Below are positions 1,445 to 21,100 of a DNA stretch of 22,105 bases, in pieces. The notes under the pieces are model-generated. The model was not told the DNA's origin. It searched no databases and saw only the letters and a list, made by a program, of their open reading frames with translations. The DNA comes from a virus (taxonomy: Duplodnaviria > Heunggongvirae > Uroviricota > Caudoviricetes). The DNA lies in IMG/VR virus record IMGVR_UViG_2671180609_000024. One strand, 5' to 3'. Both the position numbers and the translations under genes were made by a program. Position 1 is the stretch's first letter. Each line of letters starts with the position of its first letter.

Positions 1445-1458
1445 TTTAAATCAATAAG

Positions 1459-2607: not shown

Positions 2608-2664
2608 GCTTAATTTTTAAGAGCATCACCTTCATGGTGGTTAGTGCGTCCTGCTGATGTGCTT

Positions 2665-3917: not shown

Positions 3918-4414
3918 TATTTAGCCCTCACCAGAAAGTTAAATGCAATATTTCGCGGTCTGACTGCAACAAAATTCACACCATCACCCACAGAGTTACT
4001 GGTGAAATTAAATCGTGAAAATCCTGGCTGATTTCCGGCGATGCCATCATGAAAGTTAATTGCGTGTCCCGCACCTTCGCCTATATTCCCGGCAAACTGA
4101 GAAAAGTTTGTAGCTGCCTGCCAGCTTAATAATTCGCGACCACCGTCTGCACCTCGCCCGTCATCCCAGATACGAATGAAATCACCGCGGGCTTCAGGTA
4201 ATACCAGCGAAGGAAACACTTTCGCCAGCACAGGATAATCAGTGGCAGAGAATTTCGCGCCGTTGAACTTCAAAAACACCATACAGGACCAGCTGTCGAT
4301 TACAGTATTTGGCATTGCAGCGGACGGCCAGAAGAACGGAACGCCAATAGCTGGAGCACCTTCTCTCAAACCAACGTTTATGAAAATGCAGAAATAACGA
4401 GCAAATGGCATCAT
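3917..4414 (-). pseudogene. Tail fibre C-terminal variable-segment fragment (Stf'-like); no constant N-terminal tail-fibre part in the window
   Basis: Gly/Asn/Phe-rich ORF immediately upstream of, and coupled to, tfa' (3917 overlap); its 5' end contains the recombinase crossover-like site. By position it is the alternative variable exon of an invertible tail-fibre gene. Confidence 0.6.
4361..4386. promoter_or_regulatory. Candidate Hin/Gin/Pin-type crossover site (hix/gix/pix-like 26-mer)
   Basis: TTCTCTCAAACCAACGTTTATGAAAA matches hixL (TTCTTGAAAACCAAGGTTTTTGATAA) at about 19 of 26 positions; about 55 bp upstream of the invertase start, where crossover sites lie in known systems. Confidence 0.5.
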
Positions 4415-4440
4415 TCCTGCTTTTGTCAGGGAGATCTACC

Positions 4441-4995
4441 ATGCTTATTGGCTATGTACGTGTGTCAACAAATGACCAGAACACAGATCTACAACGTAAT
4501 GCGCTGAACTGTGCAGGATGCGAGCTGATTTTTGAAGACAAGATAAGCGGTACAAAGTCCGAAAGGCCGGGACTGAAAAAACTGCTCAGGACATTATCGG
4601 CAGGTGACACTCTGGTTGTCTGGAAACTGGATCGGCTGGGGCGCAGTATGCGGCATCTGGTCATTCTGGTTGAGGAGTTGCGCGAACGTGGCGTTAATTT
4701 TCGCAGCCTGACGGATGCTATTGATACCAGTACCCCAATGGGGCGCTTTTTCTTTCATGTGATGGGGGCCCTGGCTGAAATGGAACGAGAACTGATTGTT
4801 GAACGAACAAAAGCTGGACTGGAAGCTGCTCGCGCACAGGGACGAATTGGTGGACGTCGTCCCAAACTTACACCAGAACAATGGGCGCAGGCCGGACGAT
4901 TAATTGCAGCAGGAATTCCTCGCCAGAAGGTAGCGATCATCTATGATGTTGGTGTATCGACACTGTATAAGAAGTTTCCGGCCGGAGATAAATGA
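4441..4995 (+). CDS. pin: Serine-type DNA invertase, Pin/Hin/Gin/Cin family
   Basis: MLIGYVRVSTNDQNTDLQRNAL... resolvase/invertase catalytic domain with the active-site Ser in YVRVST, plus a C-terminal HTH. SD GGGAG 7 nt upstream of the ATG at 4441; the listed ORF begins 12 codons upstream. Confidence 0.9.
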   Translation: MLIGYVRVSTNDQNTDLQRNALNCAGCELIFEDKISGTKSERPGLKKLLRTLSAGDTLVVWKLDRLGRSMRHLVILVEELRERGVNFRSLTDAIDTSTPMGRFFFHVMGALAEMERELIVERTKAGLEAARAQGRIGGRRPKLTPEQWAQAGRLIAAGIPRQKVAIIYDVGVSTLYKKFPAGDK

Positions 4996-5052
4996 AACCG
5001 TAGCACGTCGTATGCAAGATCGTGCTGCGGTTTATGCTTACCACTTGAAGAT

Positions 5053-5922
<870 letters not shown>

Positions 5923-6006
5923 CTAACCCTTTGAATTTACATAGCGCAAAAAGATACCTTTCCTCATAATGTGAGCTAATTTTATGTTTCGTTTGATGAT
6001 CGGGTC

Positions 6007-6067
6007 GGTCTCGAAAACCGGAGTAGGGGCAACTCTACCGGGGGTTCAAATCCCCCTCTCTCCGCCA
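6007..6067 (+). pseudogene. 3' fragment (about 61 nt) of a tRNA-Ser gene (serU-type) - an att-site remnant, not a functional tRNA
   Basis: GGTCTCGAAAACCGGAGTAGGGGCAACTCTACCGGGGGTTCAAATCCCCCTCTCTCCGCCA matches the anticodon-arm-to-3'-end of E. coli tRNA-Ser(CGA) as I recall it; upstream sequence does not form the acceptor or D arm. Confidence 0.8.
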
Positions 6068-6649
6068 CTTTATCAATGACTTATCTCCCGACTTCCCGTC
6101 TTGCTTTTCCTAAACAGAACAATCGTAGAATATTCTTGAAGGGTTAGATCGTCACTGTTTTCTGTTCGATACTGTGACATTCAGCACTTGATTCGCTATG
6201 GATCTGACAGGAAGGTTTTGAGCGAAAATCTGCAGTTATTCAGTCGTTTTCTTATCGGTCACCATTATTCTTTTAGACATTGATCCTACAAAGCTGCCGC
6301 AAAGTTGGTGGTGGGAACTGAAGTTGCGTAGAGAAGGGGTCAATACCCGGAGGCAAACATGGGCTGGCAAAAGTGTAGCGGTATTAGGCGCAGCTATTTA
6401 GCCTAGTTATGTTTTATGAAAACTTGATATCATATAAGTGTCTTACTTATTGGCTGTAAATAAGTTTTTCCTAAGGAATTGTTTCTTGAGTATCATTTGT
6501 AACTGTAACGGAATTTATAATCCTTTGCTTTATTGTTACGGTATTTTTTATCACACCCTATTTTTAGTGGTTTTTTATACTGAAGTTTGGCAAAGTGAAC
6601 TTTATATACATATACTTCATCCTGGTTTCAGTTAAATTGGGGGGATGAT

Positions 6650-7393
6650 ATGGCAACTACATGTTCAGTTATATTGATTTTGGAGTCCTTTGATGTTTAT
6701 TTCGGAAAAGAGAGTGTGTTTCTGGAGAGAGGTTCATCTGTACTTGTCGACTCTAGCTCTAGAGATTTTTTCCTGACATATCCTGAAAGAGTGATAGTGG
6801 CGGATTTTGGCGCTGAGTTTATTAGTCGCTATTTGAAAGCTAATAACTTAAGGGATATTTCTGATTGTAGGGAATATCCATCTTATTTAAAAATAAACTT
6901 TGCTGACTTCAGTTTAATTAAAGGATTAATTAGTTGGGCTAATCACTGTGCTGAATACATAGAAATTTTTGATGAGTCTATTGCTTTTACATGTCTCTCT
7001 GCATTTTCTTCTGAAAAACAATTTGGAGTATTTCTGTTTGGATGTTTGAAAAGCACAGGGGCTAAAGTTAAAACGATTATTCATACGGATTTATCTGCAC
7101 CATGGCGTCTTAAGGATATATCATCAAGATTATATCTCAGCGAAAGTTTACTAAAGAGGAAATTGAAAGAAGAGGGGGTATCATTCAGTAAGATCATACT
7201 TGATGAGAGGATGCAAATGGCTGAATATTTACTCAGCACTCGTTGTTATCCTATTAGTAAAGTAGCTAAGGTCTGTGGTTATGCCAGTGTCTCATACTTT
7301 ACTTATGTATTTAGACGTTATTTTGGTGTTTCTCCAAGTCAATACTCTCAGAGGAGTTCAGAAAGTAAAATTCTTACTCACCAGGGAATCTGA
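6650..7393 (+). CDS. AraC/XylS-family transcriptional regulator (AppY/GadX/Rns-like)
   Basis: C-terminal dual-HTH AraC domain (WRLKDISSRLYLSESLLKRKLKEEGVSFSKIILDERMQMAEYLL ... VCGYASVSYFTYVFRRYFGVSPSQY) aligns by eye to AppY. Very AT-rich gene with a long AT-rich leader; SD GGGGGATGA before the ATG. Confidence 0.85.
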   Translation: MATTCSVILILESFDVYFGKESVFLERGSSVLVDSSSRDFFLTYPERVIVADFGAEFISRYLKANNLRDISDCREYPSYLKINFADFSLIKGLISWANHCAEYIEIFDESIAFTCLSAFSSEKQFGVFLFGCLKSTGAKVKTIIHTDLSAPWRLKDISSRLYLSESLLKRKLKEEGVSFSKIILDERMQMAEYLLSTRCYPISKVAKVCGYASVSYFTYVFRRYFGVSPSQYSQRSSESKILTHQGI

Positions 7394-7395
7394 TC

Positions 7396-7872
7396 ATTGT
7401 TCTTGCCCCCTTATTTCCAGACAGGGGGGGTATCTTAAGTTAACGTTACCCGCTGACGTCGATATTCTCGCGGAGAGCGATAACCCAACGCACTGTGCGG
7501 ATGGTTTTCATTGTAATGTTCGATCGCCACTGCAAGATTATGCAATGCCGTTCTTACATTCGGTTTCGGCATGAACGCGATGTAGTCTTCCTTCATCGTT
7601 TTCACGAACCTTTCTGCAATTCCATTACTCTGAGGACTGCTGATTGCCGTTGTGCAGGGCTCCAGATTCAACTCTCTGGCGAACTGCCGTGTTTCATGCG
7701 CTCTATACGCTGAACCGTTATCTGTCAGCCACTGGATGGACTGTTCCGGTACTTTATCGCCAAAGCGTTTTTCTATCGCTCCTAACATGACATCCTGCAC
7801 TGTCGCTTTATCGTAACCTCCCGTGCTTGCGGCCCAGTCTATGGCTTCACGATCGCAACAGTCCAGGGCGAT
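7396..7872 (-). mobile_element. IS2-like (IS3-family) element remnant: 3' part of the orfB transposase plus a terminal inverted repeat; 5' truncated
   Basis: Translation ...[38 protein letters not shown]...[18 protein letters not shown] matches the IS2 InsD C-terminal region as I recall it. Terminal sequence around 7396-7420 (revcomp CCCCCCCTGTCTGGAAATAAGGGGGCAAG) resembles an IS2 end. In-frame stop at 7873-7875. Confidence 0.8.
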
Positions 7873-8147
7873 TCATCTGGGCCAATCCTTGCTCATAACA
7901 GGCATTCACTTCAGTCATGGCAGAAAGGTATGCATGCTGGAGAAGTCGTGAAAGAAAAGAAGACTGCTGCGCCGTTTGTCGTCACGTTTATCTTCATTGG
8001 CTATGCAAGTCGTAATACAAGGTGGGACAAAACTGAGACACATAAGGCCTCGCAATGGCTTGCAAGGCTTTACATGTTTTGATGTGGTGGGACGTGTGAG
8101 CGCAGTGTTGATGGGGTAATGCTTTGAATTAGAAGCGGATTCTTATA

Positions 8148-8193
8148 ATTCGTAATGCGAAGGTCGTAGGTTCGACTCCTATTATCGGCACCA
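8148..8193 (+). repeat. Direct repeat of the tRNA-Thr 3' end (46 bp, exact): att junction between element 1 and the P4-like element
   Basis: ATTCGTAATGCGAAGGTCGTAGGTTCGACTCCTATTATCGGCACCA is identical to positions 1399-1444 of the full tRNA gene. Confidence 0.9.
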
Positions 8194-8355
8194 TCTCAAC
8201 TTCCTCAAACGTCCGTATTAGTCCATAAAATCTCTGATTTATAACATTTTTTATTCTTTTAAGTCCATAGTAGTCCGTAACCATCCAGTAGAATCCGGTA
8301 CTGAATGTGTATAGGATTGTGTATATGTTCCTGTTCGGTCTGGATTCCTATACAC

Positions 8356-9537
8356 ATGCCTTTAAACGATATGCAGATTCGCCGCGCTAAGCCTGAAGCT
8401 AAAGCCTATACATTTGGAGATGGGCTAGGGTTGTCATTACTTATAGAACCTAATGGAAGCAAGAGTTGGCGGTTCCGCTATCGCTATGCCGGCAAACCCA
8501 AAATGATCTCGCTTGGTGTTTACCCAACGATCACCCTTGCCGATGCTCGTTCCCGTCGTGATGAAGCTCGAAAACTTGTGGCAGAAGGAAAGAACCCTAG
8601 TGAGGTTCGAAAAGAGCAAAAGCTAGCTATGCAAACAGAGTCAGAGAACGCCTTCGAAAAGATAGCCAGAGAGTGGCATCAACTTAAATCTGCTAAATGG
8701 TCGGCGGGATATGCATCAGACATCATGGAAGCGTTTAAGAACGACATTTTTCCTTATGTCGGAACAAGGCCTGTGGGAGAGATTAAACCGCTAGAGCTGC
8801 TGAACGTTCTGCGTAAAATTGAGAAACGTGGTGCGTTGGAGAAAATGCGCAAAGTGCGGCAGCGTTGCTCCGAAGTGTTTCGCTACGCAATTGCAACGGG
8901 TAGGGCGGAGTACAATCCTGCGGCTGATCTCTCCAGCGCTCTCGAAGTACACCAATCCAATCATTTCCCATTCCTAAAAGCTGATGAGATACCTGATTTT
9001 CTACGTGCCTTAGAGGGTTACTCCGGGAGTAAGCTTGTCCAGATAGCCACGAAATTACTGATGATTACGGGTGTGAGAACCATCGAATTACGCGCGGCAT
9101 TATGGCAAGAATTTGATCTGGATAACGCTATTTGGGAAATTCCTGCTGAAAGGATGAAAATGCGTAGGCCACATCTTGTGCCCTTATCATCTCAAGCGGT
9201 AGATTTACTCAATGAACTCAAGATCATGACAGGGAACTATCGTTATGTTTTTCCAGGGCGGAACGATCCGAATAGGCCAATGAGCGAAGCGAGTATAAAT
9301 CAAGCCATTAAGCGTATTGGGTATGGAGGAAAAGTCACTGGACATGGTTTTCGTCATACCCTTTCTACAATCCTGCATGAGCAAGGTTTTGAGAGTGCTT
9401 GGATTGAAATCCAGTTGGCTCATGTAGATAAAAATTCTATTAGGGGGACTTATAACCATGCTCAATATTTTAGTGGAAGGAAGTCTATGATGGACTGGTA
9501 CAGTAATTTGATATTTGAAAGACTAAAAAGGAGTTAA
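8356..9537 (+). CDS. int: P4-type tyrosine integrase (N-terminal arm-binding domain + catalytic domain)
   Basis: N-terminus MPLNDMQIRRAKPEAKAYTFGDGLGLSLLIEPNGSKSWRFRYRY is the classic P4/CP4-type integrase start; C-terminal HGFRHT ... Y catalytic motifs. Immediately follows the tRNA-derived repeat and reads away from it. Confidence 0.92.
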   Translation: MPLNDMQIRRAKPEAKAYTFGDGLGLSLLIEPNGSKSWRFRYRYAGKPKMISLGVYPTITLADARSRRDEARKLVAEGKNPSEVRKEQKLAMQTESENAFEKIAREWHQLKSAKWSAGYASDIMEAFKNDIFPYVGTRPVGEIKPLELLNVLRKIEKRGALEKMRKVRQRCSEVFRYAIATGRAEYNPAADLSSALEVHQSNHFPFLKADEIPDFLRALEGYSGSKLVQIATKLLMITGVRTIELRAALWQEFDLDNAIWEIPAERMKMRRPHLVPLSSQAVDLLNELKIMTGNYRYVFPGRNDPNRPMSEASINQAIKRIGYGGKVTGHGFRHTLSTILHEQGFESAWIEIQLAHVDKNSIRGTYNHAQYFSGRKSMMDWYSNLIFERLKRS

Positions 9538-9540
9538 TTT

Positions 9541-9957
9541 GTGTCTCAACCACTTTCGGAAATATTGACATGGGATGATGAACAATGGGAGGTATTTGTC
9601 CATGATTGGCTTATTGTCTGTAAATCAGATGATTACCCGTGGAGCGAACGTTTGGGAGGAGCTGGAGATAAAGGTAGAGACGTTGTTGGATATAAATCGG
9701 ATCCTAACGTAGAAGGTTATTCTTGGGATAATTATCAATGCAAACTGTACAAAAAAAGTTTAGGGTTCTCTGATGTTGTAGTTGAGTTTGGAAAACTTAT
9801 CTATTTTACTCTGAATGGTGATTATCCCATCCCTCAGAAGTACTTTTTTGTGGCACCCTATGATTTATCTACTACATTTTCTAATTTATTGAAAAATAAA
9901 AACGAGCTTAAAAAAGCAGTCCTTGATTCATGGGATTCAGCAATTTCAAAAAAATAA
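9541..9957 (+). CDS. Cargo gene 1: small protein with a PD-(D/E)xK (Mrr-like) nuclease motif; possibly the N-terminal part of a longer protein (see findings)
   Basis: GTG start 7 nt after SD AAGGAG and 3 nt after the int stop. Motifs GGAGDKGRDVVGY and, about 20 aa later, YQCKLYKK (D ... QxK) look like a restriction-endonuclease-like core. Very AT-rich. Confidence 0.6.
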   Translation: MSQPLSEILTWDDEQWEVFVHDWLIVCKSDDYPWSERLGGAGDKGRDVVGYKSDPNVEGYSWDNYQCKLYKKSLGFSDVVVEFGKLIYFTLNGDYPIPQKYFFVAPYDLSTTFSNLLKNKNELKKAVLDSWDSAISKK

Positions 9958-10547
9958 CTAAAAAGATTGATATTCCATTAGATGATGAAATAAAAAAATA
10001 TATTGAGGATTTTGATTTTAGTATTTTTTACTCTCTACCCTTATCATTGATTTTAAATGATATTGCAAATACACACCTTTATTTTAAGTACTTTAACGAG
10101 CTGTATGTCGTGAGAATCCCTCCAAATGAAATTCCAACATACAATTCAAAAAAAGAGTCTGTATATGTTAATGCACTGCTTCAAGCCTATTCAGAGCATG
10201 GAAATAAAACTTATAGTTCTTTCTTAGAGCTTGATGATCCATACAGACGACACTTTAATAATAGTAGAAATGATTTTTATTTTGCATCTTCGCTTGAGGT
10301 TTTTGTCCGCGAAGTATTTAAAGATGATGTATTCAAAGCATTGAAATGTTACATTTCATCTTCAATTGAACCCGTCTTTTATGAAGACCATAATTATGCA
10401 TTTATTAGGTGTAATGCAGTCTTGAAGCAGGCTGTTCTGACACCAATTGCACATTCAGTACTATCAAAAATATGTGAAGCAAATGATAAAAAAGGAATAT
10501 GCCATCATTTGGTTAATGATGGTGAAGTAATTTGGACGGTGAGATAA
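9930..10547 (+). CDS. Cargo gene 2: hypothetical protein (205 aa as listed); may be the C-terminal part of gene 1 joined by a shift in an A7 run
   Basis: ORF overlaps gene 1 by 28 nt in another frame; both frames pass through the A7 homopolymer at 9948-9954. No domain recognised by eye. Confidence 0.5.
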   Translation: MGFSNFKKITKKIDIPLDDEIKKYIEDFDFSIFYSLPLSLILNDIANTHLYFKYFNELYVVRIPPNEIPTYNSKKESVYVNALLQAYSEHGNKTYSSFLELDDPYRRHFNNSRNDFYFASSLEVFVREVFKDDVFKALKCYISSSIEPVFYEDHNYAFIRCNAVLKQAVLTPIAHSVLSKICEANDKKGICHHLVNDGEVIWTVR

Positions 10548-11005
10548 TGGTTAGAATTTATAATTCAAGTTTAGAAGTGGCATGTCGAATGGCGAAAGTG
10601 CTCGTCGCTATTTATCCTTCTTCATTAAGCCTTGAACGGCTTATTTGTTTTGATTTTATTTTAGTAAATCTTAAGGATTTTTTACCTGAAGAGATTAGTC
10701 TTCATCCTCCAATACCCCGTAGAGATGCTCAGTTAGCCCTAAAACGAGAGATTGTTTTAGAATCATTGGCTTTGTTGCAAGGCTATGAACTAGCCTCAAA
10801 AATTTATACACATCGTGGTTTTGTATATAAAGCTTCTGAAAAAACATATGCATTTACAAATTCTCTACATAATGAATATGTTGCGCAGATGGAGCATAAT
10901 ATAAATTTGGTGGTTAAGTTATATAGTGATATTCCTGATGAGCAGTTGCAATCAATTATAAAAAATAAAATTGGCAAATATGATATGGAATTTAATTATG
11001 AATGA
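10547..11005 (+). CDS. Cargo gene 3: hypothetical protein (about 152 aa)
   Basis: ATG overlaps the gene-2 stop (TAATG at 10545-10549); its stop overlaps the next gene's start. Same AT-rich composition. Confidence 0.55.
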   Translation: MVRIYNSSLEVACRMAKVLVAIYPSSLSLERLICFDFILVNLKDFLPEEISLHPPIPRRDAQLALKREIVLESLALLQGYELASKIYTHRGFVYKASEKTYAFTNSLHNEYVAQMEHNINLVVKLYSDIPDEQLQSIIKNKIGKYDMEFNYE

Positions 11006-11630
11006 CAATTTTTTTACGTTCAGAAAAATAAAGGTAACCGGATTCAATAAATTAGATGCTATAATTGAATTTGGTTCTAAATTGACTATTTTATATGGTG
11101 GTTCTGACTCTGGAAAAACATACATATATTATTTGATTCGATATTTATTAGGGAGTGAAAAACTAAAAAATAAAGATATCGATCATGCTCAAGGTTATGA
11201 TTTAGCCTATCTGGAATTTAATTTTCAAGGTAGGGTAATGACAATTGAGAGGTCTCTTCAGGATAGCGCCCATTACAGATTATATGATTCGAGCATTGAA
11301 AATGTTAGTGAAGCTAATCTGTTGATGGTTTTTTCCAAAAGTGCTTCGTCTAAAAAGAGTTTTTCATCATACTTTTATGGTAGGTTGAATTTCAAAGAGG
11401 CTAAAGTAAGAACAAACTTAAGTAATACTCTTCATAAATTTAATCTTAATAATGTTTTTGAATTTTTTTGTATTGATGAATTAAGAGTGTTAACTGAGAA
11501 GTCGTTAATTCTTTCTGATATTCCTAGCGAGGAGACAAAAAGAAAGTCTGAATTTAAATTCCTTTTAACTCAGAGAGATGATACTAACTCCTTAGCAGAA
11601 AAACCAAATAAAAAAGCAAGATATTTTTAA
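10998..11630 (+). CDS. Cargo gene 4: N-terminal head of an SMC/Rad50/RecN-like ABC ATPase (Walker A)
   Basis: FRKIKVTGFNKLDAIIEFGSKLTILYGGSDSGKTYIYYLIRYLLG is the canonical SMC-like N-terminal strand-loop-Walker A arrangement (GxxxxGKT). The ORF ends at a TAA inside a T5/A7 tract and the next ORF continues in the same frame. Confidence 0.65.
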   Translation: MNDNFFTFRKIKVTGFNKLDAIIEFGSKLTILYGGSDSGKTYIYYLIRYLLGSEKLKNKDIDHAQGYDLAYLEFNFQGRVMTIERSLQDSAHYRLYDSSIENVSEANLLMVFSKSASSKKSFSSYFYGRLNFKEAKVRTNLSNTLHKFNLNNVFEFFCIDELRVLTEKSLILSDIPSEETKRKSEFKFLLTQRDDTNSLAEKPNKKARYF

Positions 11631-11660
11631 AAAAATCAAATTGCAAATATTTATGAGGAA

Positions 11661-12251
11661 TTGAAAGCGCAATTAATTTATCCTGAATATGATCAAGTCA
11701 TTGTTTCAAGAGAACTTGAGAAAGTAGAGCAAGATATTGAATCATCGAAAGATATATTGAAAGGTATTGTTGATGCACTTGATGATAAGAAGCAATTATT
11801 AAAAGAGTTAAGTGATGAATTATATTCAATCAGTGACAGGGAAAAATACTTATCATTACTCATTGAAAGATTTAGTCTTCTTAAAGACCAATACTTTATA
11901 GATCTACAAAGAATAGATGTTGTATCACAGGCGAATTTCTATTTAAATAATTTTGCAGATATTTATTGTGAGTTCTGTAATACACCGCAAAAAAAAGAAA
12001 ATGAAATATCATATGATGATTGTTTTTTGTCGTGTAATGCAGAAAAATTGAAAATCAAAAGCCAGCTGAAAGGATTAATTGAATCAATCGGATCTAATGT
12101 TCGCGAACATGAATTAATTATGTTAAGAAAAAATGATGTTAATGAAATTTATCAATCAGAAAAAAGTGATTTTAAGACGTTAGAAGATAAAAATATAAAA
12201 CAATACATTCATCTCTTGAATCACTTTATGAATATAAAGACAATCTTTTAA
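11661..12251 (+). CDS. Cargo gene 5: coiled-coil segment of the SMC/Rad50-like ATPase with a Cys4 cluster (CxxC-x14-CxxxC); probably not independently translated
   Basis: Heptad-rich sequence (EKVEQDIESSKDILKGIVDALDDKKQLLKELSDELYSI...), cysteines in YCEFCNTPQ...DDCFLSCN. Same frame as gene 4, separated by a single TAA; the listed start is a TTG with no convincing SD. Confidence 0.5.
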   Translation: MKAQLIYPEYDQVIVSRELEKVEQDIESSKDILKGIVDALDDKKQLLKELSDELYSISDREKYLSLLIERFSLLKDQYFIDLQRIDVVSQANFYLNNFADIYCEFCNTPQKKENEISYDDCFLSCNAEKLKIKSQLKGLIESIGSNVREHELIMLRKNDVNEIYQSEKSDFKTLEDKNIKQYIHLLNHFMNIKTIF

Positions 12252-12817
12252 TGGATCACACAAAACATAGCATTCTATCTTCATTACAAGATAAAGAAGA
12301 TGATGTTGACGAACTTAAATACTCCGCCGAGGACTTTGACTCCTTAACAGTAGCTGATTTGTATGATATAGAAATAGCGATGCAAGACTTTTTGAATGAT
12401 ATAAATTTTGAAAATTCTAAAGATAACAAAGTGCGATTTGACGAAGATACATATGACTTTAATATCAATGGGAAACGCCGAGGAATGTTTGGTAAAGGTA
12501 CCCGTGCAGTAATGCATGCTATATTTACCATTTGCTTTGCGGAATTTTTATCAAGAAAAGGGAATCCATTCATTGGATTTGTTGTGCTTGATAGTCCATT
12601 AGTGACGCACTTTGATAAAGATAGAGGGGGTTCTCTATCGGATGTTAATAGCGTCAGTCTCAGTGATTCATTTTATCACGCATTAATCAAAAGGGACTAT
12701 AATTTCCAGATTGTAATTCTTGAGAATAAAGGTCCGACGTTCCAAATAAAAATTAATGATGCAAATAAAATCCATAACTTAAATAAGAATGGAAGCTCTG
12801 GTTTTTATCCTGTTTAA
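12251..12817 (+). CDS. Cargo gene 6: C-terminal head of the SMC/Rad50-like ABC ATPase (signature-like region, Walker B/D-loop, H-loop)
   Basis: FGKGTRAVMHAIFTICFAEFL followed by PFIGFVVLDSPLVTHFD (hydrophobic strand + D, Walker B-like) and a downstream His (FYHAL). ATG overlaps the gene-5 stop (TAATG). Confidence 0.6.
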   Translation: MDHTKHSILSSLQDKEDDVDELKYSAEDFDSLTVADLYDIEIAMQDFLNDINFENSKDNKVRFDEDTYDFNINGKRRGMFGKGTRAVMHAIFTICFAEFLSRKGNPFIGFVVLDSPLVTHFDKDRGGSLSDVNSVSLSDSFYHALIKRDYNFQIVILENKGPTFQIKINDANKIHNLNKNGSSGFYPV

Positions 12818-13175
12818 TACATTAAAAATATAACTGCTAATTGGGGTGCTCGAAATTATATTTCGTTTCGAGCGCTCAGTTCATTTCTAAATAATTTGCA
12901 AAATTATTTTGGGTACTTTCGCCTCTACACTTCCTTCGGGTGGTTCCACAATAATGGATCTCACCGGCGTTTGATATTTTATAATCTAACCCCTTAGCGC
13001 GCGCAGCCCCCCACGCCTGCTCGCTTCGCTTAACAGACTGGTTTTCATGCATTCCGCAAATCGTCTCAGAAGCCACCACACAAGGGCTTTCGCGTCAAAA
13101 ATGGTGCATGAGAATCATGCGTTTTCATGCGCTATAGACATGCACTCATGCGCTCTCAGGCCAGCCAGGGAAAAG

Positions 13176-13215
13176 GCGTAAAAAATCCCAGTACTGGACC
13201 GGGATTACGTGGGCT
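13176..13215 (-). terminator. Rho-independent terminator for the minus-strand sid-psu-delta operon (possibly bidirectional)
   Basis: Stem AATCCC (13184-13189) / GGGATT (13201-13206), flanked by an A-run on one side and a T-run on the other; on the minus strand the hairpin is followed directly by TTTTTT. Lies just 3' of the Ogr/Delta-like gene. Confidence 0.6.
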
Positions 13216-13226
13216 TTTTTTGCTAA

Positions 13227-13499
13227 TCAGACAGGAATTTGCTGACGGCTTGACAGCTTTGACGCGGAGCCATAGCGATTGAGAGTTTGCTGTTGTTTTT
13301 CCGGCATTTGTGCTTTCTCTGATTCCTGTTCATTGCGCCGGGGCTTCATGATTATCGTATCCACACTTTCCAGTGCGGTAAATGTGTAGGAACATTCAAG
13401 ATTCTGGCACTGATACCATGAGCGTTTAACCGATGGTGCTTCATAGGCGGAGGTTCTGGCGTGTGCCGTCGTACCGCATTCGGGACATTTAAGTGCCAT
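13227..13499 (-). CDS. Ogr/Delta-family zinc-finger late-gene activator (single-domain, 90 aa)
   Basis: MALKCPECGTTAHARTSAYEAPSVKRSWYQCQNLECSYTFTALESVDTIIMKP aligns by eye with P2 Ogr (CPxC..AHARTS ... QCQN.xCS.TF..ESV). Confidence 0.85.
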   Translation of the reverse strand: MALKCPECGTTAHARTSAYEAPSVKRSWYQCQNLECSYTFTALESVDTIIMKPRRNEQESEKAQMPEKQQQTLNRYGSASKLSSRQQIPV

Positions 13500-13504
13500 T
13501 AATA

Positions 13505-14056
13505 TTACTCCTGCATGCCGTTAATGTAATCCAGACGTTGCTGAAAGCGCAGTTGTTGTGCAGGGGTGTAAGAGCTCTGGCAATCACGAACCATCATGGG
13601 GTCAGGCATCACACCGGATTCATCCAGAATCATACGATAATCCCCGGCAATTTCAGGCGGTGTTATTGCCAGCTGGCGAACCAGAGCATTGCGTAATATA
13701 CGGGACGCAACGTCAACCCCTCCGCGCCCCTTCAGGAACGGAGCCAGTGCAGATGTCAGGGCTGCTCCATTCGCCTGCATAAAATTGCTGAGAGCGTCTT
13801 CTGTGCAGGCCTCCATCAGTTGATGCTGCGAGTAAATGCATTCGCGCGCAGCACAGTTAATTTGCCATTTCAGCACATCCAGATGTTCCCGCTGTAATTC
13901 GAGCTGTCGAGCATAATCTGCTGGTTTTTCCATGGCAGTGAGGAGTGATTCTATCTGTTGTTCAACGGCTTTTCGGCTCTCACTATGTCCAGCCCACAGA
14001 ATACGGGCATTTCTAAAACTGATAAGCGCTTGGTCTGGAGTGACTCGGGCCATCAT
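13505..14056 (-). CDS. psu: Psu-like polarity suppression / capsid decoration protein
   Basis: Segment LDVLKWQINCAARECIYSQHQ ... LSNFMQANGAALTSALAPFLKG ... TPAQQ resembles P4 Psu as I recall it (KWQ.N.AA ... FMQ.HG.AL..ALAP.L.G ... TPAQ). Size 183 aa against 190 aa. Confidence 0.7.
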   Translation of the reverse strand: MMARVTPDQALISFRNARILWAGHSESRKAVEQQIESLLTAMEKPADYARQLELQREHLDVLKWQINCAARECIYSQHQLMEACTEDALSNFMQANGAALTSALAPFLKGRGGVDVASRILRNALVRQLAITPPEIAGDYRMILDESGVMPDPMMVRDCQSSYTPAQQLRFQQRLDYINGMQE

Positions 14057-14805
14057 ACTGCTTTCTCCTTCTCAGCACGTTCCTGACGAACCTTCATTTT
14101 ATGCATAGCTGCTGGAGAGAGTTTATTACTGAAATCCAGACGGGCCGCATAATCCGGGGCAACTCCCGCCAGTTTAAACACGGGGTCCTGTTCGGGCATC
14201 GCATCGTTAGTCAGAGCCGGTCTGGTGATATGTTTATGAATAAAATCTTTCAGCAGTGTGTCCGGGTCATTAACTGAATGCACCACACCGACAACTGCGC
14301 TGGCTTCCCTGCCCATTGTTGATTTGAGCAGGCTTAGTGTCTGGATTAGTGCTTTTCCATGCGACTGCATAAAATCTTCCCAGATTTGTTTTGCGCGAAT
14401 ACCCACAAGGGTGTCGTGCGCGTGGATATACTTTCCGGCTAATTCCGCAGCCTCCTGCGGCAAAAGTGCATTTTCGCTTTCCTGAGCCGCCAGCAGCTCA
14501 TCAAAATCCTCAAGCGTTTCTCGTCCCAGCGCAATTTCCGTGCGCAGTTTTTTCATTTCCTTTGAGACTACGCCCTGACTTTCACGAAATAGCGTGCGCC
14601 ACTCCTCATTCAGGGCGTTCGTCGTGGCTTCCATTTCAGCGCGGCGCTGGCGGATTGTCGCAATATTATCCGCTGCCGCTTTTTGCTGACGACGTGCTTC
14701 AAGCCATGCAGATTTGGTGGCATTCACTTTCTCAAGCGCCTGTTGCGTCGAAACAGGGATAGAAATTTCAACGATCGGGTTATTGTTCTGTTCTGGGATT
14801 GTCAT
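14053..14805 (-). CDS. sid: Probable Sid-like external scaffold (capsid size determination) protein
   Basis: 250-aa alpha-helical, Ala/Glu/Gln-rich protein, first gene of the minus-strand operon and overlapping psu by 4 nt; size and position match P4 Sid (244 aa). Called by context, not by a recognised motif. Confidence 0.5.
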   Translation of the reverse strand: MTIPEQNNNPIVEISIPVSTQQALEKVNATKSAWLEARRQQKAAADNIATIRQRRAEMEATTNALNEEWRTLFRESQGVVSKEMKKLRTEIALGRETLEDFDELLAAQESENALLPQEAAELAGKYIHAHDTLVGIRAKQIWEDFMQSHGKALIQTLSLLKSTMGREASAVVGVVHSVNDPDTLLKDFIHKHITRPALTNDAMPEQDPVFKLAGVAPDYAARLDFSNKLSPAAMHKMKVRQERAEKEKAV

Positions 14806-14971
14806 GTCAGCACCTAGTGGTTTGTCGTGGTGTCAATTGTGCTGTGATGCATACAAAGCTGCCATTGAACGCCATTGTGCGAGCGACAAGACAAAGACTG
14901 AACCGCCCCGGACCTCTTTTGGCTAGCCAGAAAAGGCCTCGTTTAACTAAGGCTGTTTCAGACTTACCTTA

Positions 14972-15187
14972 ACTATTCACTACTATTCACTTAGGTAAAA
15001 AAAATAGGTAATACAGAAGGTTATAAGGTGAAGGGTTGGCATGGCAGTATTCATCGACTGTTCATAACTGTTCACATGGGAATAAAATTATTTATGGTAT
15101 TTTTTCATAATGGGTGGTTTTTTTATTCCTCGTAGCTATTTGTTTTTTGCTCCTCACCACTATTCACCCTTATTCAGGAGTATTCAA
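14972..15187. repeat. Cluster of about 8 direct iteron-like repeats, T(A/G)TTCA(C/T) (P4 type-I-iteron-like TGTTCACC variants), in the divergent intergenic region
   Basis: ACTATTCACT ACTATTCACT (tandem, 14972-14991), AGTATTCAT (15047), TGTTCAT (15059), TGTTCAC (15069), TATTCACC (15161), TATTCAG (15171), TATTCAA (15181), all in the same orientation. Confidence 0.6.
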
Positions 15188-15738
15188 CAGGCACATAAAT
15201 AGACTGCATGTTTTTGCCGGGGAATAACATTTTCGCCTCTGGCCATGGTGTTGCATTTCATACTGATTTTTATAAAACTAGATCTGTCCGGTTCTTTATG
15301 GATTCATTCGGATATATTTTACGATTTAAGGTGATGTTATTTAATATCAAGGTTTTTATGCAGGCCCAATGTTTATAAGTTGGATGCGATTCAAAAATAT
15401 GCCCGGAAATTGGGGCCTGCAATGCAAGGCCTCGTGTAGAAGTTGTACTGCCTTGCTGTATTGGCGGTGGGGTTAGCACTATCAGGTGCAATGACCCATA
15501 GGATAGTAAACCCTGGGTGAATGGTAGTTCCTATTAATGCTCCTGTATTTATAGTCCGCAGGCATGGTATTTATTATGTCATTTTATATGGTTTAATCGG
15601 GCTTTAAATTCCATAAAATCAATATGTGACGCTAAATAAAAAATGCGTGCGCAGGTGGTTTATATACACATAATAAGGAACTACCTGAACCCGGATAAAT
15701 TCATCCGGACTGTTGTGGAAATTAAAGAGGGTAGATAA

Positions 15739-15999
15739 ATGCGTAATATTTCTGTGTCTGCGCCAGCTCCTGCTGCGCCATTATTTCCTGTATCGAACCA
15801 TCATGAGCGATTTTTACGCCTGCCTGAGGTGATGCACTTATGCGGGTTGTCCCGTTCGACCGTTTACGACCTGATCAGCCGCGATGCGTTTCCGAAGCAG
15901 ATCCCGCTTGGCGGTAAAAATGTCGCCTGGGCACAGTCTGAGGTCAGCGCATGGATGGCGGACCGCATCAGCGCCCGTGGGCGGGGATGTGATGCATGA
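15739..15999 (+). CDS. AlpA/Vis-family small DNA-binding regulator (excisionase-like HTH)
   Basis: [48 protein letters not shown] matches the AlpA/Vis HTH pattern. SD AGAGGG 7 nt before the ATG. Confidence 0.8.
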
Positions 16000-16549
16000 T
16001 GATACCTGCATACATTAAATACCTTTATTCTGGCTTGCTTACTGTCGTCATTTCCAGGTATAGTTTTTCCGCTGTCGCAAAATCGGCAGCCGGAATTGGC
16101 GTTCCGTATAACTTATTGGCGACAATTGACGCCCCTTGCGTCTTTTTTTACGTCGTAGCTCAGGCACAACCATTTTCAGGGCTGTGGTGTTTATGCTTAC
16201 ACCATGGTTCTATCGAGATAATGGTAGTCCGGGCGGGGCAGCCTTCGGGCTGGCCGGTTTCCAATAAGGCCGGTTACGCCAACCCCGTTCGGGCTGCCAC
16301 CAGTGAAATTGGCGTTTCCGGTGGTAGCAATAACCGCTACTTATTGGAGGCTGCCATCATGGCTACAATCCTCACCCCGTCACACCCGCAATATGTCTTT
16401 GTGTTTGCCGCAATCCGCCGTGCTGACACTCACCCCCGCATCTGTATGCTTCGCACTGTCTCCTGCGATGAGCGTTCCGCGCGCCGTTTGCTAGTCCGAG
16501 ATTATGTACTCTCCCTTTCTGCACGGCTGCCTGCCGGGGAGGTGACGCT

Positions 16550-16771
16550 ATGAACCAGTTTGAGATTTCCTACGACGATGTTGTAAGGCTGAAACATTTA
16601 CGCAATGTGGGTGAGTATGTAACTGGCATGGCAGCCCTGCAGGACTGTTATGAAAAGCCAGCAGGTGCCCAATGCGAACAACTGGTTTCCCTCATTTATC
16701 TGATGACAGAGCAACTGGATGGAGTGGTGCAACGCTGCCATGACGACCTGATGAATGCGGAGGTGGCCTGA
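16550..16771 (+). CDS. Hypothetical small protein of the P4-like early operon (73 aa)
   Basis: SD GGGAGGTGA 4 nt before the ATG; ATGA-type overlap with the next ORF; same operon as alpha. Function unknown (positional analogue of P4 epsilon/orf151). Confidence 0.55.
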
Positions 16772-17094
16772 TGATATGCTGTGAATCTCTTCTGGCACTT
16801 CGTGCCGCTCTGTATCGCCGTGCCGTTGCCTGTGCCTGGCTGGCTCTAAGCAATCATCAGGAACGTTATTCCGGCCTGACGCTCGCTGAACTTGAAGATG
16901 CCATAGCCCGCGAGCTGGAAGGGTTCTATCTGCGCCAGCATGGGCAGCAAAGAGGGCTGGAAATTGCCTGCGCGTTGCTTTCGGATCTGATGGAGTCGGG
17001 GCCGCTTAAAGCCTGTCCGGTTCTCTCACTGCTCGGAATGACGGTCATGGATGAACTTTGTTCCCGTCACCTCAACAAACCAGCGCTGCACTAA
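16771..17094 (+). CDS. Hypothetical protein of the P4-like early operon (107 aa)
   Basis: SD GGAGGTGG upstream; start overlaps the previous stop; ends 13 nt before the alpha start. Confidence 0.55.
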
Positions 17095-17107
17095 GGAGGG
17101 CCGCACA

Positions 17108-19441
17108 ATGTCAGGAATGAAAGTTAGCCAGGCTGAGAAAGCAGCTCGGGGTCACTGGTCAAGAATTTTACCTGCGCTGGGCGTAAATGTACTGAAAAAT
17201 CGGCACCAGCCCTGCCCGGTCTGTGCCGGGAAAGACCGCTTTCGATTTGATGACCAGGAAGGGCGGGGAACGTGGTTCTGTAACCAGTGCGGGGCAGGTG
17301 ATGGCCTGGCGCTTGTAAGTAAAGTACTGGATGTAGGCATTAGTGAAGCGGCAGACAGAATAAACGGCATTATCGGAAACCTGCTGCCAGTATCTCAGGG
17401 AATGCTTGAATCTGGTTCTCCTGAAAAAGAGGACGGGAGAAAAGCTGCAGCAGTGCTGGCTGCCCGTTTGTTTGATAAGTCCCGCCAGACCACTGGCAAT
17501 GCCTATCTGACGAGTAAAGGGTTTCCTGCACTGCCTTGCCGGGAATTAACCGCTATGCATAAAGTCGGTGGTGTGGCATTTCGCGCGGGAGATCTTGTCG
17601 TTCCATTGTATGCAGATGGAGAGCTGGTAAATCTGCAGTTAATCAACGCTAATGGGGGCAAATGCTTCCTTAAAGGCGGTCAGGTTAAGAATGCCTTTTA
17701 CCTGGTTGAAGGTACTGCCAAAGCAGCCAAACGGCTCTGGATAGCGGAAGGATATGCCACCGCACTTACTATCAACTATCTGACTGGCGATGCTGTCATG
17801 GTGGCCTTTTCGTCCGTCAATTTCCTTTCCCTGGCGAGCATTGCCTGCAGTGAGTACCCAACGCACCAGATAATTATTGCTGCTGACCGCGATCTCAACG
17901 GTGCGGGGCAAACAAGGGGCGCAGCTGTTACCGGGGCCTGCAATTGCACAATGGCGCTCCCGCCTGTGTTTGGTGACTGGAACGATGCATTCACGCAAAA
18001 CGGCGAAGAAGCCACCCGGCATGCAATTCATGAAGTAATAAAACCAGCTGTTGCCAGCCCCTTCGACACAATGAGCGAAGCTGAATTTACCGCGCTGAGC
18101 GTCAGCGAAAAAGCGCAGAGGGTAGTGGATCACTATAAAAATTCACTGGCAGTAGACCCGAACGGGCAGCTCCTTTCACGCTATGAGGCGGGGGCCTGGA
18201 AAGTTATCTATTACGCCGATTTTGCCCGTGATGTCGCTGCGCTGTTTCAGCGCCTCGACGCACCTTTTTCATCCGCGAAAATTGCGTCTCTCGTGGAAAC
18301 CCTCAAACTGATCGTTCCGCAACAGCAGAATCCGGCGCGGCAACTTATCGGATTTCGCAACGGTGTGCTCGATACCCGGACAGGATTGTTCAGCCCGCAC
18401 GATAAGAAGCACTGGTTACGTACGCTGTGCGAGGTGGATTACACGCAGCCCGTTGACGGTGAGTCACTGGAAACCCATGCCCCGGCATTCTGGCGCTGGC
18501 TGGATCGTGCCGCAGGTTTTAATCCTGAAAAACGGGACATTATTCTGGCTGCATTGTTTATGGTGCTGGCTAACCGTTATGACTGGCAGCTGTTTCTGGA
18601 GGTCACTGGCCCTGGCGGAAGTGGAAAGAGTATTCTTGCTGAAATAGCAACCATGCTGGCGGGTGAAGATAACGCGACCTCGGCAACCATTGAAATGCTT
18701 GAGTCGCCAAGAGAACGAGCTGCGTTAATAGGTTTTTCACTGATTCGACTTCCCGACCAGGAAAAGTGGAGCGGTGACGGGGCCGGACTAAAAGCCATCA
18801 CTGGCGGCGATGCGGTATCCGTTGATCCCAAATATCAGAACGCCTATTCAACCCACATCCCGGCGGTCATCCTGGCTGTGAACAATAATCCGATGCGCTT
18901 CACTGATCGTAGTGGTGGAGTTTCACGCCGAAGGGTGATCCTGCATTTCCCCGACCAGATAGCCCCGGAGGAACGCGATACCCAGCTCAAAGAGAAAATT
19001 GCCAGTGAGCTAGCGGTGATTGTTCGCCAGCTTATGCAGCGTTTCAGCGACCCAATGAGTGCCAGGACATTGCTTCAGTCACAGCAGAACTCCGATGAAG
19101 CGCTCACCATCAAACGTGATGCTGATTCAGCTTTTGATTTTTGCGGCTACCTTGAGGTCCTACCTGACACCACGGGCATGTTTATGGGGAACGCTAATAT
19201 TGTTCCACGTCAGCCTCGAACTTACCTCTACCATGCCTATCTGGTCTACATGGAGGCTAACGGCTATAAAAATACGCTCAGTCTGACCATGTTTGGCAAG
19301 GGGCTACCGTTAATGCTCAAGGAATATGGGCTGCAGTATGAGAAACGACGGACCAATCAAGGAATGCAGACTAATCTGGCCCTAAGAGAGGAAAGCAATG
19401 CTGACTGGTTGCCAAAATGCGATGAGTTTGCAGCGAAATAA
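17108..19441 (+). CDS. P4 alpha-like bifunctional primase-helicase (777 aa)
   Basis: SD AAGGAGGG before the ATG at 17108. N-terminal zinc-binding primase motif CPVCAGKDRFRFDD...GTWFCNQCGAGDG; central P-loop EVTGPGGSGKSIL (D5-type helicase Walker A). Length equals that of P4 alpha (777 aa). The listed ORF starts 19 codons upstream. Confidence 0.9.
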   Translation: MSGMKVSQAEKAARGHWSRILPALGVNVLKNRHQPCPVCAGKDRFRFDDQEGRGTWFCNQCGAGDGLALVSKVLDVGISEAADRINGIIGNLLPVSQGMLESGSPEKEDGRKAAAVLAARLFDKSRQTTGNAYLTSKGFPALPCRELTAMHKVGGVAFRAGDLVVPLYADGELVNLQLINANGGKCFLKGGQVKNAFYLVEGTAKAAKRLWIAEGYATALTINYLTGDAVMVAFSSVNFLSLASIACSEYPTHQIIIAADRDLNGAGQTRGAAVTGACNCTMALPPVFGDWNDAFTQNGEEATRHAIHEVIKPAVASPFDTMSEAEFTALSVSEKAQRVVDHYKNSLAVDPNGQLLSRYEAGAWKVIYYADFARDVAALFQRLDAPFSSAKIASLVETLKLIVPQQQNPARQLIGFRNGVLDTRTGLFSPHDKKHWLRTLCEVDYTQPVDGESLETHAPAFWRWLDRAAGFNPEKRDIILAALFMVLANRYDWQLFLEVTGPGGSGKSILAEIATMLAGEDNATSATIEMLESPRERAALIGFSLIRLPDQEKWSGDGAGLKAITGGDAVSVDPKYQNAYSTHIPAVILAVNNNPMRFTDRSGGVSRRRVILHFPDQIAPEERDTQLKEKIASELAVIVRQLMQRFSDPMSARTLLQSQQNSDEALTIKRDADSAFDFCGYLEVLPDTTGMFMGNANIVPRQPRTYLYHAYLVYMEANGYKNTLSLTMFGKGLPLMLKEYGLQYEKRRTNQGMQTNLALREESNADWLPKCDEFAAK

Positions 19442-19448
19442 CTGACCT

Positions 19449-19469
19449 AAGACCGGCTGTGCCGGTCTT
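19449..19469. terminator. Perfect palindrome / hairpin (AAGACCGG ... CCGGTCTT) between the convergent alpha and cargo genes; no U-tract
   Basis: AAGACCGGCTGTGCCGGTCTT forms an 8-9 bp stem, 8 nt after the alpha stop. No flanking T-run on either strand, so terminator function is uncertain; it could be a protein-binding palindrome. Confidence 0.35.
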
Positions 19470-19573
19470 AAATCCGCTACAGGAAATTATCTCAAAATAT
19501 ATATCGATAAAATTTAAAAGTTATATGCTAAGGCGTCAGCGGAAAATGCATCTAATTCATTGTTAGATGATGT

Positions 19574-20530
19574 TTATTTTTGAATTGATTTAAACATCCC
19601 ATCGAGTTGTAATTTATTTATGTCGGTTTTCTTTATGGCTTTAATTAAGTTTTCAATAACTTCCAAAGAAAAAATTACATCTTTCTTTTCAATTCTAACC
19701 CCCCCGTGGTGGCTGCAAGCATTAAGGATGTCCTTTGTAATTTCAACATCATTTTTCATTAATGGTTCATAGTCCAGAGCCTCAATAACAGAAACTAAAC
19801 TACCTAGCATTTGCTCTTGGTATTGAACGTTGTTTAAATGCATTATACGAATATTAACAAGCATGAGAATATATTCTAAATATCTCCTGGCAGTATTTCC
19901 TTTCTCTTGTAAAGAATCACGATCATATTCCTCAATACTCATGACTTCATTATGTAAAGAGGCTATTTTGTGCTCTGCTAATGAAATATTTATCGCATCC
20001 ATGAGGTTTCGTGAGAAGCCTGTAGATGTAACATGACCATTTGCGGGCCTTGTTAAAATACATGTAGTATAGCAATTTATATTTGGGGTCTGGATTGTCT
20101 CATTTACTCTTTTAACCGTTCTATAAACGTCTACCATATAAGAACCTGAGTTTTCAAATGAACATGAAGAGCATTTTGTATTATATATTCTATTTAGAGA
20201 TAACTGATTGTGATAGTATCCCTTTAAGAAAGCATATATAGTGTCATTAAACTCGACAAACACAACGGACTCAATATATATATGGAATTTATCATTGGGG
20301 TGCCACTCTAATTCAAGTCTTCTTGTAGAGTCATCAAAGGAAAAGTTTGAAATAAAATCCCAGTTACCTAAATCTATAAAATCAACGATATTTCTACCTG
20401 CACCATGGATATTTTTATTTATTAAAGTTGTGATTGAGTTTTTTATAATGTCCCAATCATGAATTTCATGATCGAATTTATTATTGATGGTTTCTTTTAT
20501 TTGATTGGAAAAGTTTGAATAACTAGTCAC
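19574..20530 (-). CDS. Orphan AT-rich cargo gene, hypothetical protein (318 aa), between alpha and the distal att remnant
   Basis: Long ORF with a GTG start preceded by a GAGG SD; strongly AT-rich, Asn/Ile/Lys-rich composition unlike the flanking P4-like genes. No domain recognised by eye. Confidence 0.6.
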   Translation of the reverse strand: MTSYSNFSNQIKETINNKFDHEIHDWDIIKNSITTLINKNIHGAGRNIVDFIDLGNWDFISNFSFDDSTRRLELEWHPNDKFHIYIESVVFVEFNDTIYAFLKGYYHNQLSLNRIYNTKCSSCSFENSGSYMVDVYRTVKRVNETIQTPNINCYTTCILTRPANGHVTSTGFSRNLMDAINISLAEHKIASLHNEVMSIEEYDRDSLQEKGNTARRYLEYILMLVNIRIMHLNNVQYQEQMLGSLVSVIEALDYEPLMKNDVEITKDILNACSHHGGVRIEKKDVIFSLEVIENLIKAIKKTDINKLQLDGMFKSIQK

Positions 20531-20829
20531 TTGTTAGCCTCAAAATTAATAATGAGTATTAAAATTTAATTGATATTGTCTATAAAATGTAGCGATGCAA
20601 TTTTATTGCAACGAAATGATTTTTACAACATACCATTATCGCTAAACAAAATCGCACCCATCAAATCAACTTACGTTACAATCACTACAAAGCGATTGCA
20701 TTTAAATTCAAAACAGTTTTCTGTTGGGCGCATTTTTTGTTGTACTGGACTAAAGAGAAAAAATGGGGTAAGGAACAAATACCTTCCGTGCTCAAAAATT
20801 AGGTTTTTATGCACTTATTAATCAGTCAA

Positions 20830-20921
20830 GGTGAACAGTAAAGTGTTCACTTCTTATCAATCGTTAATTTCATATCTTTTTGAATATTAATGAAAAAAAA
20901 CACAATGAGTAGTATGAACAG
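20830..20921. repeat. Inverted pair of P4 type-I-iteron-like octamers (GGTGAACA gtaaag TGTTCACT) plus a further inverted copy (ATGAACAG)
   Basis: GGTGAACAGTAAAGTGTTCACT at 20830-20851 (GGTGAACA is the reverse complement of TGTTCACC); ATGAACAG at 20914-20921. Confidence 0.5.
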
Positions 20922-21060
20922 TTTTCCCCCAAAAAAAGTTTTTTCTGCCTTGAGAATGCGCGGAAAGCGAACGCCTTCACCAATGTGTATAGGGGTGTGT
21001 GTAGTTTAAATCTTCTATTTTAATTTATGTATTAAAATCATTGTGTTGGTGGCGATTATT

Positions 21061-21100
21061 GGTTCCTATTATCGCACCATTTAAATCAAGTAGTTACCCC
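21061..21100 (+). repeat. Degenerate third copy of the tRNA-Thr 3' end plus flank (distal att remnant of the array)
   Basis: GGTTCCTATTATCGCACCATTTAAATCAAGTAGTTAC against the tRNA 3' end plus its flank GGTTCGACTCCTATTATCGGCACCATTTAAATCAATAAGTTAC at 1420-1462 (a 5-nt and a 1-nt deletion, two substitutions). Confidence 0.6.

Follow-up and report, generated by a model that had tools for sequence, protein, structure and literature searches.

Results and discussion

Genetic context

The window, by which we mean the whole stretch of 22,105 nucleotides that was analysed, contains a P4-like element, as the initial annotation had proposed. The core set of int, psu, delta, sid, alpA, epsilon/ash and alpha is present in the conserved order with psu and delta swapped, a variant that has been reported in 20% of elements (PMC8628076). 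Full-length versions of alpha, int, alpA, sid, psu, delta and the cnr homologue are present. The repeat array that is the subject of this work lies between the divergent sid and alpA genes, where it had been placed originally. The coordinates are collected in Table 1.

A tRNA-Thr gene is found at 1369–1444. Its 3′ part is repeated at 8148–8199, and a further partial copy is located at 21074–21097 (by eye, from near 21064). Because these copies of the tRNA 3′ end mark the boundaries, the element is taken to span about 8200–21097 (ca. 12.9 kb); the host LysR gene follows at 21206, past the element. There are two elements in tandem at thrW, and the first of them (1445–8147) differs from the matching region of strain TR01. 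Many E. coli O157:H7 chromosomes contain the sid–alpA spacer at 100% identity, and the RefSeq O157:H7 genomes show no annotated features in this spacer. One of the prophages of strain Sakai, Sp2, is P4-like (PMC2669165); our element fits the published description of Sp2 and is probably the same prophage.

The ORF with the RefSeq label Icd-like/Ash contains isrK (16071–16148) and a C4 antisense RNA (16217–16304), which belongs to the P4 immunity RNA family. A 73-aa ORF lies between this ORF and that of the DUF5375 protein. The gene family of P4 ORF106/DUF5375 has been named cnr, for copy-number regulator, and is located between epsilon and alpha (PMC8628076). Since C4, isrK and a cnr-family gene were all found, the whole replication and immunity module of P4 is present.

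The Lamassu cargo between the integrase and delta, parts of which RefSeq labels as ‘ABC-three component system’, is fragmented and probably pseudogenised; this copy of the element has therefore accumulated damage. The P4/P2 cos 19-mer, GGCGAGGCGGGGAAAGCAC, was not found within 3 mismatches. A diverged GC-rich block at about 13020–13050, gcgcgcgcagccccccacgcctgctcgc, is cos-like, with only a loose resemblance to the neighbourhood of P4 cos. The divergence may reflect a different specificity for the helper, or loss of cos.

Table 1. Features of the P4-like element and of the repeat array in the window. A dot in the strand column marks a feature without strand.
Feature	Coordinates	Strand	Remarks
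Integrase	8305–9537		ORF
LmuA, two ORFs	9541–9957, 9930–10547		Lamassu cargo between integrase and delta (9541–12817)
LmuC	10532–11005		Lamassu cargo
LmuB, three ORFs	10971–11630, 11661–12251, 12251–12817		Lamassu cargo
delta	13227–13499	−	
psu	13505–14056	−	Full length
sid, 250 aa	14053–14805	−	Full-length Sid homologue, 23% identity, E = 5e-12
Iteron cluster A	14972–14991	+	Two direct units, ACTATTCACT ACTATTCACT; matches P4 type-1 repeats 9406–9413 and 9396–9403
Conserved A-rich spacer	14992–15026	.	TTAGGTAAAAAAAATAGGTAATACAGAAGGTTATA; family consensus AAAAAgATAAGTAATACAGtaAgtTAA
Degenerate inverted unit	15027–15034	−	GGTGAAGG; GGTGAACA in P4 (9353–9360) and most relatives
Iteron cluster B	15046–15076	+	Three direct units, AGTATTCATC g ACTGTTCATA ACTGTTCACA; spacing 11 and 10 bp
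AT-rich stretch, 72 bp	15077–15148	.	Between clusters B and C; candidate DNA-unwinding region
Iteron cluster C	15149–15188	+	Four units, GCTCCTCACC ACTATTCACC CTTATTCAGG AGTATTCAAC; 10-bp phase
alpA/vis, 86 aa	15739–15999	+	63% identical to P4 ORF88; Pfam Phage_AlpA
DUF5375 protein	16771–17094	+	P4 ORF106 homologue; Pfam DUF5375, E = 1.7e-49
alpha, 777 aa	17108–19441	+	Primase, SF3 helicase, C-terminal origin-binding winged-helix domain; presumed iteron-binding initiator
Orphan ORF, 318 aa	19574–20530	−	No Pfam or PADLOC match; visibly AT-rich DNA; alpha terminator on one side, crr-like unit on the other
Single crr-like unit	20828–20944	.	GGTGAACA-N6-TGTTCACT, A-rich segment, TGAACAG, A7/T6 tract

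The repeat array

A pattern search of the sid–alpA spacer for T[AG]TTCA gave eight matches, all on the plus strand within 14974–15186, with starts at 14974, 14984, 15048, 15059, 15069, 15161, 15171 and 15181. This agrees with the initial annotation, which had counted about eight copies of T(A/G)TTCA(C/T) in the same orientation within 220 bp. No match was seen on the minus strand within the 933-bp intergenic region. The perfect 10-bp tandem duplication that had also been described is ACTATTCACT, present twice at 14972–14991. The third and fourth units of the array end in T (TATTCAT and TGTTCAT). A repeat finder adds two degenerate units, an inverted GGTGAAGG and a direct TCCTCACC (15151–15158), the latter sharing the 10-bp phase of the final three units. 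The GC content is 28% at 14960–15019 and reaches its minimum of 25% at 15080–15139, inside the AT-rich stretch.

A chance origin of the array is ruled out by two calculations. Elsewhere in the window, T[AG]TTCA has a background frequency of 0.0008 per base and strand, giving an expectation of about 0.17 per 210 bp and a Poisson probability of about 1e-11 for at least eight matches, or about 6e-7 with a crude correction over all window positions. Furthermore, when the intergenic region was simulated 20,000 times with a first-order Markov model, the largest cluster of the hexamer on one strand had 4 copies. A coding sequence or an RNA gene is also unlikely, since no ORF of at least 40 aa spans the array and 14800–15760 has no Rfam match even at E ≤ 1. 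Integrase arm sites are likewise an unlikely reading, as the annotated attP arm repeats of P4 (4151–4174, GGGGCACAAAAG-type) are unrelated in sequence to the iteron.

Comparison with the P4 origin

In the GenBank record of P4 (X51522), a rep_origin is annotated at 9086–9809, between sid and ORF88, with six 8-bp ‘ori type 1 repeats’, TGTTCACC, at 9310–9413 and three 10-bp ‘type 2’ repeats at 9176–9205. Type-1 repeats are also annotated in crr (4291–4590), which bears out the statement in the initial annotation that P4 has these iterons in both ori1 and crr. In the orientation of the window, the P4 order is CTGTTCACC tCTGTTCACC, then ttaataaaaaagataagtaatacagtaagttaaag, the inverted GGTGAACA, 13 nt, and CTGTTCACC gtCTGTTCACC aCTGTTCACC.

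Pairwise alignment places window 14972–15076 against P4 9413–9310 unit for unit and in register, and takes in the spacer (AAAAAA.ATA.GTAATACAG) as well as the place of the inverted unit. The counterparts of cluster B are the P4 type-1 repeats at 9331–9338, 9320–9327 and 9310–9317. The two regions thus share the slot between sid and ORF88/alpA, the strand bias, and the arrangement of two direct units, an A-rich spacer with GTAATACAG, one inverted unit and three direct units at 11 and 10 bp. They also share a cognate alpha initiator, 72% identical between the two, with a conserved origin-binding domain. However, the correspondence does not extend to the last three or four units of the window (15149–15188), which have no counterpart in P4; the window adds the 72-bp AT-rich stretch and the four phased units of cluster C, and its sid–alpA intergenic region is 933 bp long, compared with 552 bp in P4. 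Conversely, the three type 2 repeats of P4 are absent from the window, as a repeat search of 14800–15750 did not find a 10-bp triple repeat of this kind. The units themselves are T(A/G)TTCAY in the window, and the inverted unit is degenerate. None of the units in the array is a perfect TGTTCACC; they carry 1–3 mismatches with the core T-N-TTCA kept. The sole perfect TGTTCACC in the whole 22-kb window is at 20830–20837 (−), inside the crr-like unit.

The alpha gene is intact and starts 1.9 kb downstream of the array, close to the 2 kb given originally. Its product has the Pfam domains Zn_Ribbon_Prim, Toprim_3, D5_N, DUF5906 and Pox_D5, and residues 671–770 match PDB 1KA8, the solved origin-binding domain of P4, with E = 9e-46. 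The in-register alignment and an intact alpha with its origin-binding domain argue for the initial proposal of an iteron array for alpha and a candidate origin. We consider it very likely that the array represents an origin of the ori1 type, belonging to a P4-like satellite prophage at thrW of E. coli O157:H7, the element of about 8200–21097 that is probably Sakai Sp2. By sequence comparison, the array is an ori1 homologue, and hence of an already known kind, with modest lineage-specific variation in the form of cluster C, relaxed units and the absence of type 2 repeats.

Could the repeats instead be operators at which regulators such as Delta/Ogr or Vis/AlpA act on the divergent late and early promoters, and not replication sites? 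The array does lie in the divergent promoter region between sid and alpA, and the late promoters of P4 are under the control of DNA-binding activators. However, the annotation of P4 assigns the homologous repeats to the origin and lists them again in crr, far from these promoters, and the unit of our array likewise recurs downstream of alpha, both in the window and in >25 loci. In addition, the Delta/Ogr site, a TGT-N12-ACA dyad, is unlike a phased direct repeat. An operator function in place of a replicative one is thus very improbable.

The ori1 module in other elements

We compared 80 loci that encode alpha homologues, one genome per species. As blastn-short with the ori core recovered 8 loci only, we turned to scanning for the motif, to an alignment anchored on the pattern and to a profile search with nhmmer. 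In a pattern-free scan of the 80 loci, the densest same-strand TRTTCA cluster was found about 1.65–3.55 kb upstream of alpha in almost all loci that had a close alpha and sufficient flanking sequence, and the densest opposite-strand cluster was usually just downstream of alpha, in the place of crr. About 50 elements of other Enterobacterales have the layout of the module upstream of an alpha-type gene.

Alignment over the full module of two units, spacer, one inverted unit and three units was obtained for 42 elements, with spacings of 9–10, 63–66, 11 and 10 bp; the 11/10 spacing of cluster B is identical in all 42. The first unit is ACTATTCAC(T/C) in 30 of the 42, and TATTCAC is its commonest form (71%). 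The inverted unit is GGTGAACA in 29 of 42 and, as in the window, GGTGAAGG in 3. These 42 elements were selected with a pattern that demanded the units, so the 100% invariance of T..TTCA among them is partly circular. Independent support comes from the pattern-free scan, from the core-conservation test on six members described below, and from a profile search: the nhmmer profile built from the 42 elements found the module at the expected place in 8 more that the pattern had missed (L036–L039, L041–L043 and L086), in which some units are CCTTCACC or TCTTCACC.

The family consensus unit is T-N-TTCAC(C/T). Given this consensus, and with TATTCAC as the commonest first unit, T(A/G)TTCA(C/T), the motif of the initial annotation, can be read as a legitimate family variant.

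In distant alpha relatives (40–45% identity; Zobellella and Morganella), an ori1-type module of two units, spacer, inverted unit and three units is found immediately downstream of alpha (L054, 6931–7167; L056, 6868–7042). Three Yersinia loci (L058, L060 and L061) have their densest TRTTCA clusters just past alpha on both strands, and the ori profile gives no module match there. In a Kluyvera genomosp. 3 locus (L050), the alpha homologue is 95% identical, with an origin-binding domain that is alignable only through ‘MFGKG’ and is about 40 residues short; no ori module was found in the 4.5 kb upstream of this alpha. The Kluyvera alpha locus is probably a truncated remnant.

Cluster C and the sublineage

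Units at +86, +96 and +106 past unit 5 are found only in the window, in Scandinavium L066 and in E. coli L084, L085 and L086. Enterobacter L053 has a partial cluster C with one strict unit, and the cluster is missing from 36 other elements, P4 among them. Neither the 72-bp stretch nor cluster C has an annotated counterpart in P4. The stretch ahead of cluster C is 73–79% AT in all members of the sublineage. The six members were aligned with cluster A as the sole anchor. Of the 42 columns that make up the hexamer cores of clusters B and C, 36 are invariant, compared with 166 of 435 (38%) elsewhere (Fisher p = 2.5e-9). The cores of the relatives in this sublineage are 90–98% identical to the window, and the rest of the region is 55–88% identical. 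Because the variant units have been kept in relatives whose flanks are only 55–88% identical, they represent a selected lineage state and not decay of the O157 copy.

What is the function of cluster C? It might lie outside the origin proper and be a separate control site, for example a set of copy-number sites that titrate or handcuff alpha, or the site of another protein of the element that acts on a promoter-like block at about 15251–15284. Its absence from 36 other P4-like origins, including that of P4, indicates that cluster C is not needed for ori1 function in general. A conserved TTGCAT...TATAAA block follows it at a distance of about 65 bp, and the units of cluster C diverge most from TGTTCACC. 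On the other hand, cluster C shares with clusters A and B the core (TNTTCA/TCCTCAC), the strand and the 10-bp phasing, and the variants TCTTCACC and CCTTCACC occupy iteron positions elsewhere in the family as well as in the crr of P4. Two sets of iterons around an AT-rich segment are, furthermore, a known origin layout (PMC6092414). We judge a separate control function unlikely, and favour cluster C as part of the origin.

A bolder suggestion is that the sublineage with swapped psu and delta and a long spacer has a remodelled origin, with T(A/G)TTCAY in place of TGTTCACC, the inverted unit lost, and a four-unit block added so that the AT-rich region is bracketed on both sides, and that this origin could define a separate replicon-specificity or incompatibility type. 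If so, elements of the sublineage could coexist in one cell with canonical P4-like elements, with no cross-activation or titration of alpha. We regard this as distinctly doubtful. A binding domain of alpha specific to the sublineage was considered as an explanation for the variant units and rejected: the type found in the window (LSLTMFGKGL...RRTNQGMQ) is common to many elements with canonical TGTTCAC units, and the variant iterons thus have no special binding domain. A modest clue to the drift of origin specificity in satellites is provided by cluster C, specific to the lineage, and by the relaxed iteron.

The crr-like unit

The initial annotation had left the choice between a replication origin and a cis replication region. 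The first of these fits the ori1 register of the array; the second applies to the separate crr-like unit downstream of alpha, which lies inside the att boundaries of the element and matches the crr regions of >20 loci by BLASTN. Like P4 crr, it has type-1 units in the order of inverted unit, direct units, A-rich segment, inverted pair and A/T tract. However, alpha of P4 is directly followed by two repeats of 120 bp, separated by 60 bp, whereas the window has one partly decayed unit, with about 3 of the usual 6 units intact and about half lost relative to relatives.

That the array itself is crr instead of an origin might be entertained because crr is also built of type-1 repeats. Moreover, the ori1-core profile matches crr units on the opposite strand with E down to 1e-10, at 4298–4406 in P4 (L001) and downstream of alpha in >25 loci, so that a crr unit resembles a paralogue of the ori1 core that has been inverted and rearranged. 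However, both the position between sid and alpA and the register of the array fit ori1, and a distinct unit with the layout and homology of crr is present at 20828–20944. The chance that the array is crr is accordingly minimal, and we retain its assignment as the origin.

The 318-aa cargo ORF sits between alpha and the crr-like unit. In L006, L029 and L055, two crr-like units are found about 1.7–1.9 kb apart. Together, the position of the ORF and these split units suggest a second cargo-insertion spot at or inside crr.

Proposed mechanism and activity of this copy

By homology with P4, alpha would, after derepression, use its C-terminal winged-helix domain to bind the T(A/G)TTCAY units. As the units are 10–11 bp apart, the bound proteins would be located on one face of the helix. 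Alpha would also bind the crr-like unit; P4 needs crr in cis for replication. The alpha hexamer would then open adjacent AT-rich DNA, most plausibly the stretch at 15077–15148, which in the sublineage is bracketed by clusters B and C, and would act as helicase and primase for theta replication by the host Pol III. P4 replication is not known to need DnaA, DnaB or DnaG. Alpha binding to the variant units, the site of melting and the activity of this copy are predicted by analogy with P4. The P4 side of the mechanism is drawn from the annotation of X51522, the title that PMC8628076 gives for Ziegelin et al. 1993, and general background on P4.

Is this copy of the origin still fired by alpha? The array may be homologous to ori1 and yet be a non-functional relic in a defective prophage, a reading that disputes its activity and not its identity, and so partly overlaps our preferred one. 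P4-type satellites are activated by a P2-type helper and are not known to be SOS-inducible. When Sakai was treated with mitomycin C, neither circularisation nor replication nor packaging of Sp2 was observed (PMC2669165). Loss of function would also be in keeping with the lack of perfect octamers in the ori, the single, half-decayed crr unit, the splitting of LmuA and LmuB into fragments, and the failure to find the P4/P2 cos 19-mer. However, the need for a P2-type helper in place of SOS induction makes the negative result for Sp2 weak evidence, and mitomycin C is not known to be the natural inducer of such satellites. Furthermore, the deviant units TATTCATC and TGTTCATA and cluster C are conserved in relatives with flanks of 55–88% identity, and, as noted above, alpha and six other genes of the element are full length. 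A relic is a possibility to be taken seriously, but we think it unlikely, and the array as an ori1-type origin remains our preferred reading.

Comparison with other origins

The layout of two iteron sets around an AT-rich putative melting site is also seen in the origins of Gram-negative PICIs, such as EcCICFT073, where it is found beside a primase–helicase initiator in an AlpA-regulated satellite (PMC6092414). The PICIs have different alleles of the initiator family and unrelated iteron sequences, and their origins adjoin pri-rep instead of lying between sid and alpA; the likeness is one of layout, and no homology is claimed. Iteron-controlled plasmid origins similarly combine an AT-rich unwinding element with adjacent initiator sites that are directly repeated and in helical phase. 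They differ in that the initiator of the window combines primase, helicase and origin binder, and in that P4-type replication depends on crr as well, a second cis site at a distance.

P4-like satellites have been surveyed at population level with respect to their genes, not to ori or crr (PMC8628076). The gain from the present analysis is mainly one of annotation, namely the exact coordinates of ori and crr in the O157 element, and the array overturns or opens no major question. The ori1 module of P4 is a conserved and recognisable landmark across the satellites of Enterobacterales, and the coordinates are useful for testing prophage replication and for P4-based delivery vectors.

Other features of the sid–alpA spacer

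From cluster C to alpA (15190–15738), there is about 550 bp of conserved non-coding DNA, in a spacer that is 381 bp longer than that of P4. The indels among relatives in this stretch are not multiples of three. Its strongly conserved blocks are TTGCATTT (15251–15258), AAATCAATATGTGACGCTAAATAAA, and a CCGGA...TCCGG hairpin directly before alpA. On the sid side of the array, about 40 bp from cluster A, the palindrome TGGCTAGCCA at 14921–14930 is invariant in the sublineage; at the matching place, P4 has CGGCAAGCCAGG. This palindrome may be part of the control of the sid promoter. Closer to the start of sid, TGT-N12-ACA dyads, considered as Delta/Ogr sites but with no role claimed for them, are found at 14838–14855; they would lie in the sid leader by analogy with the annotated −10 of the P4 record.
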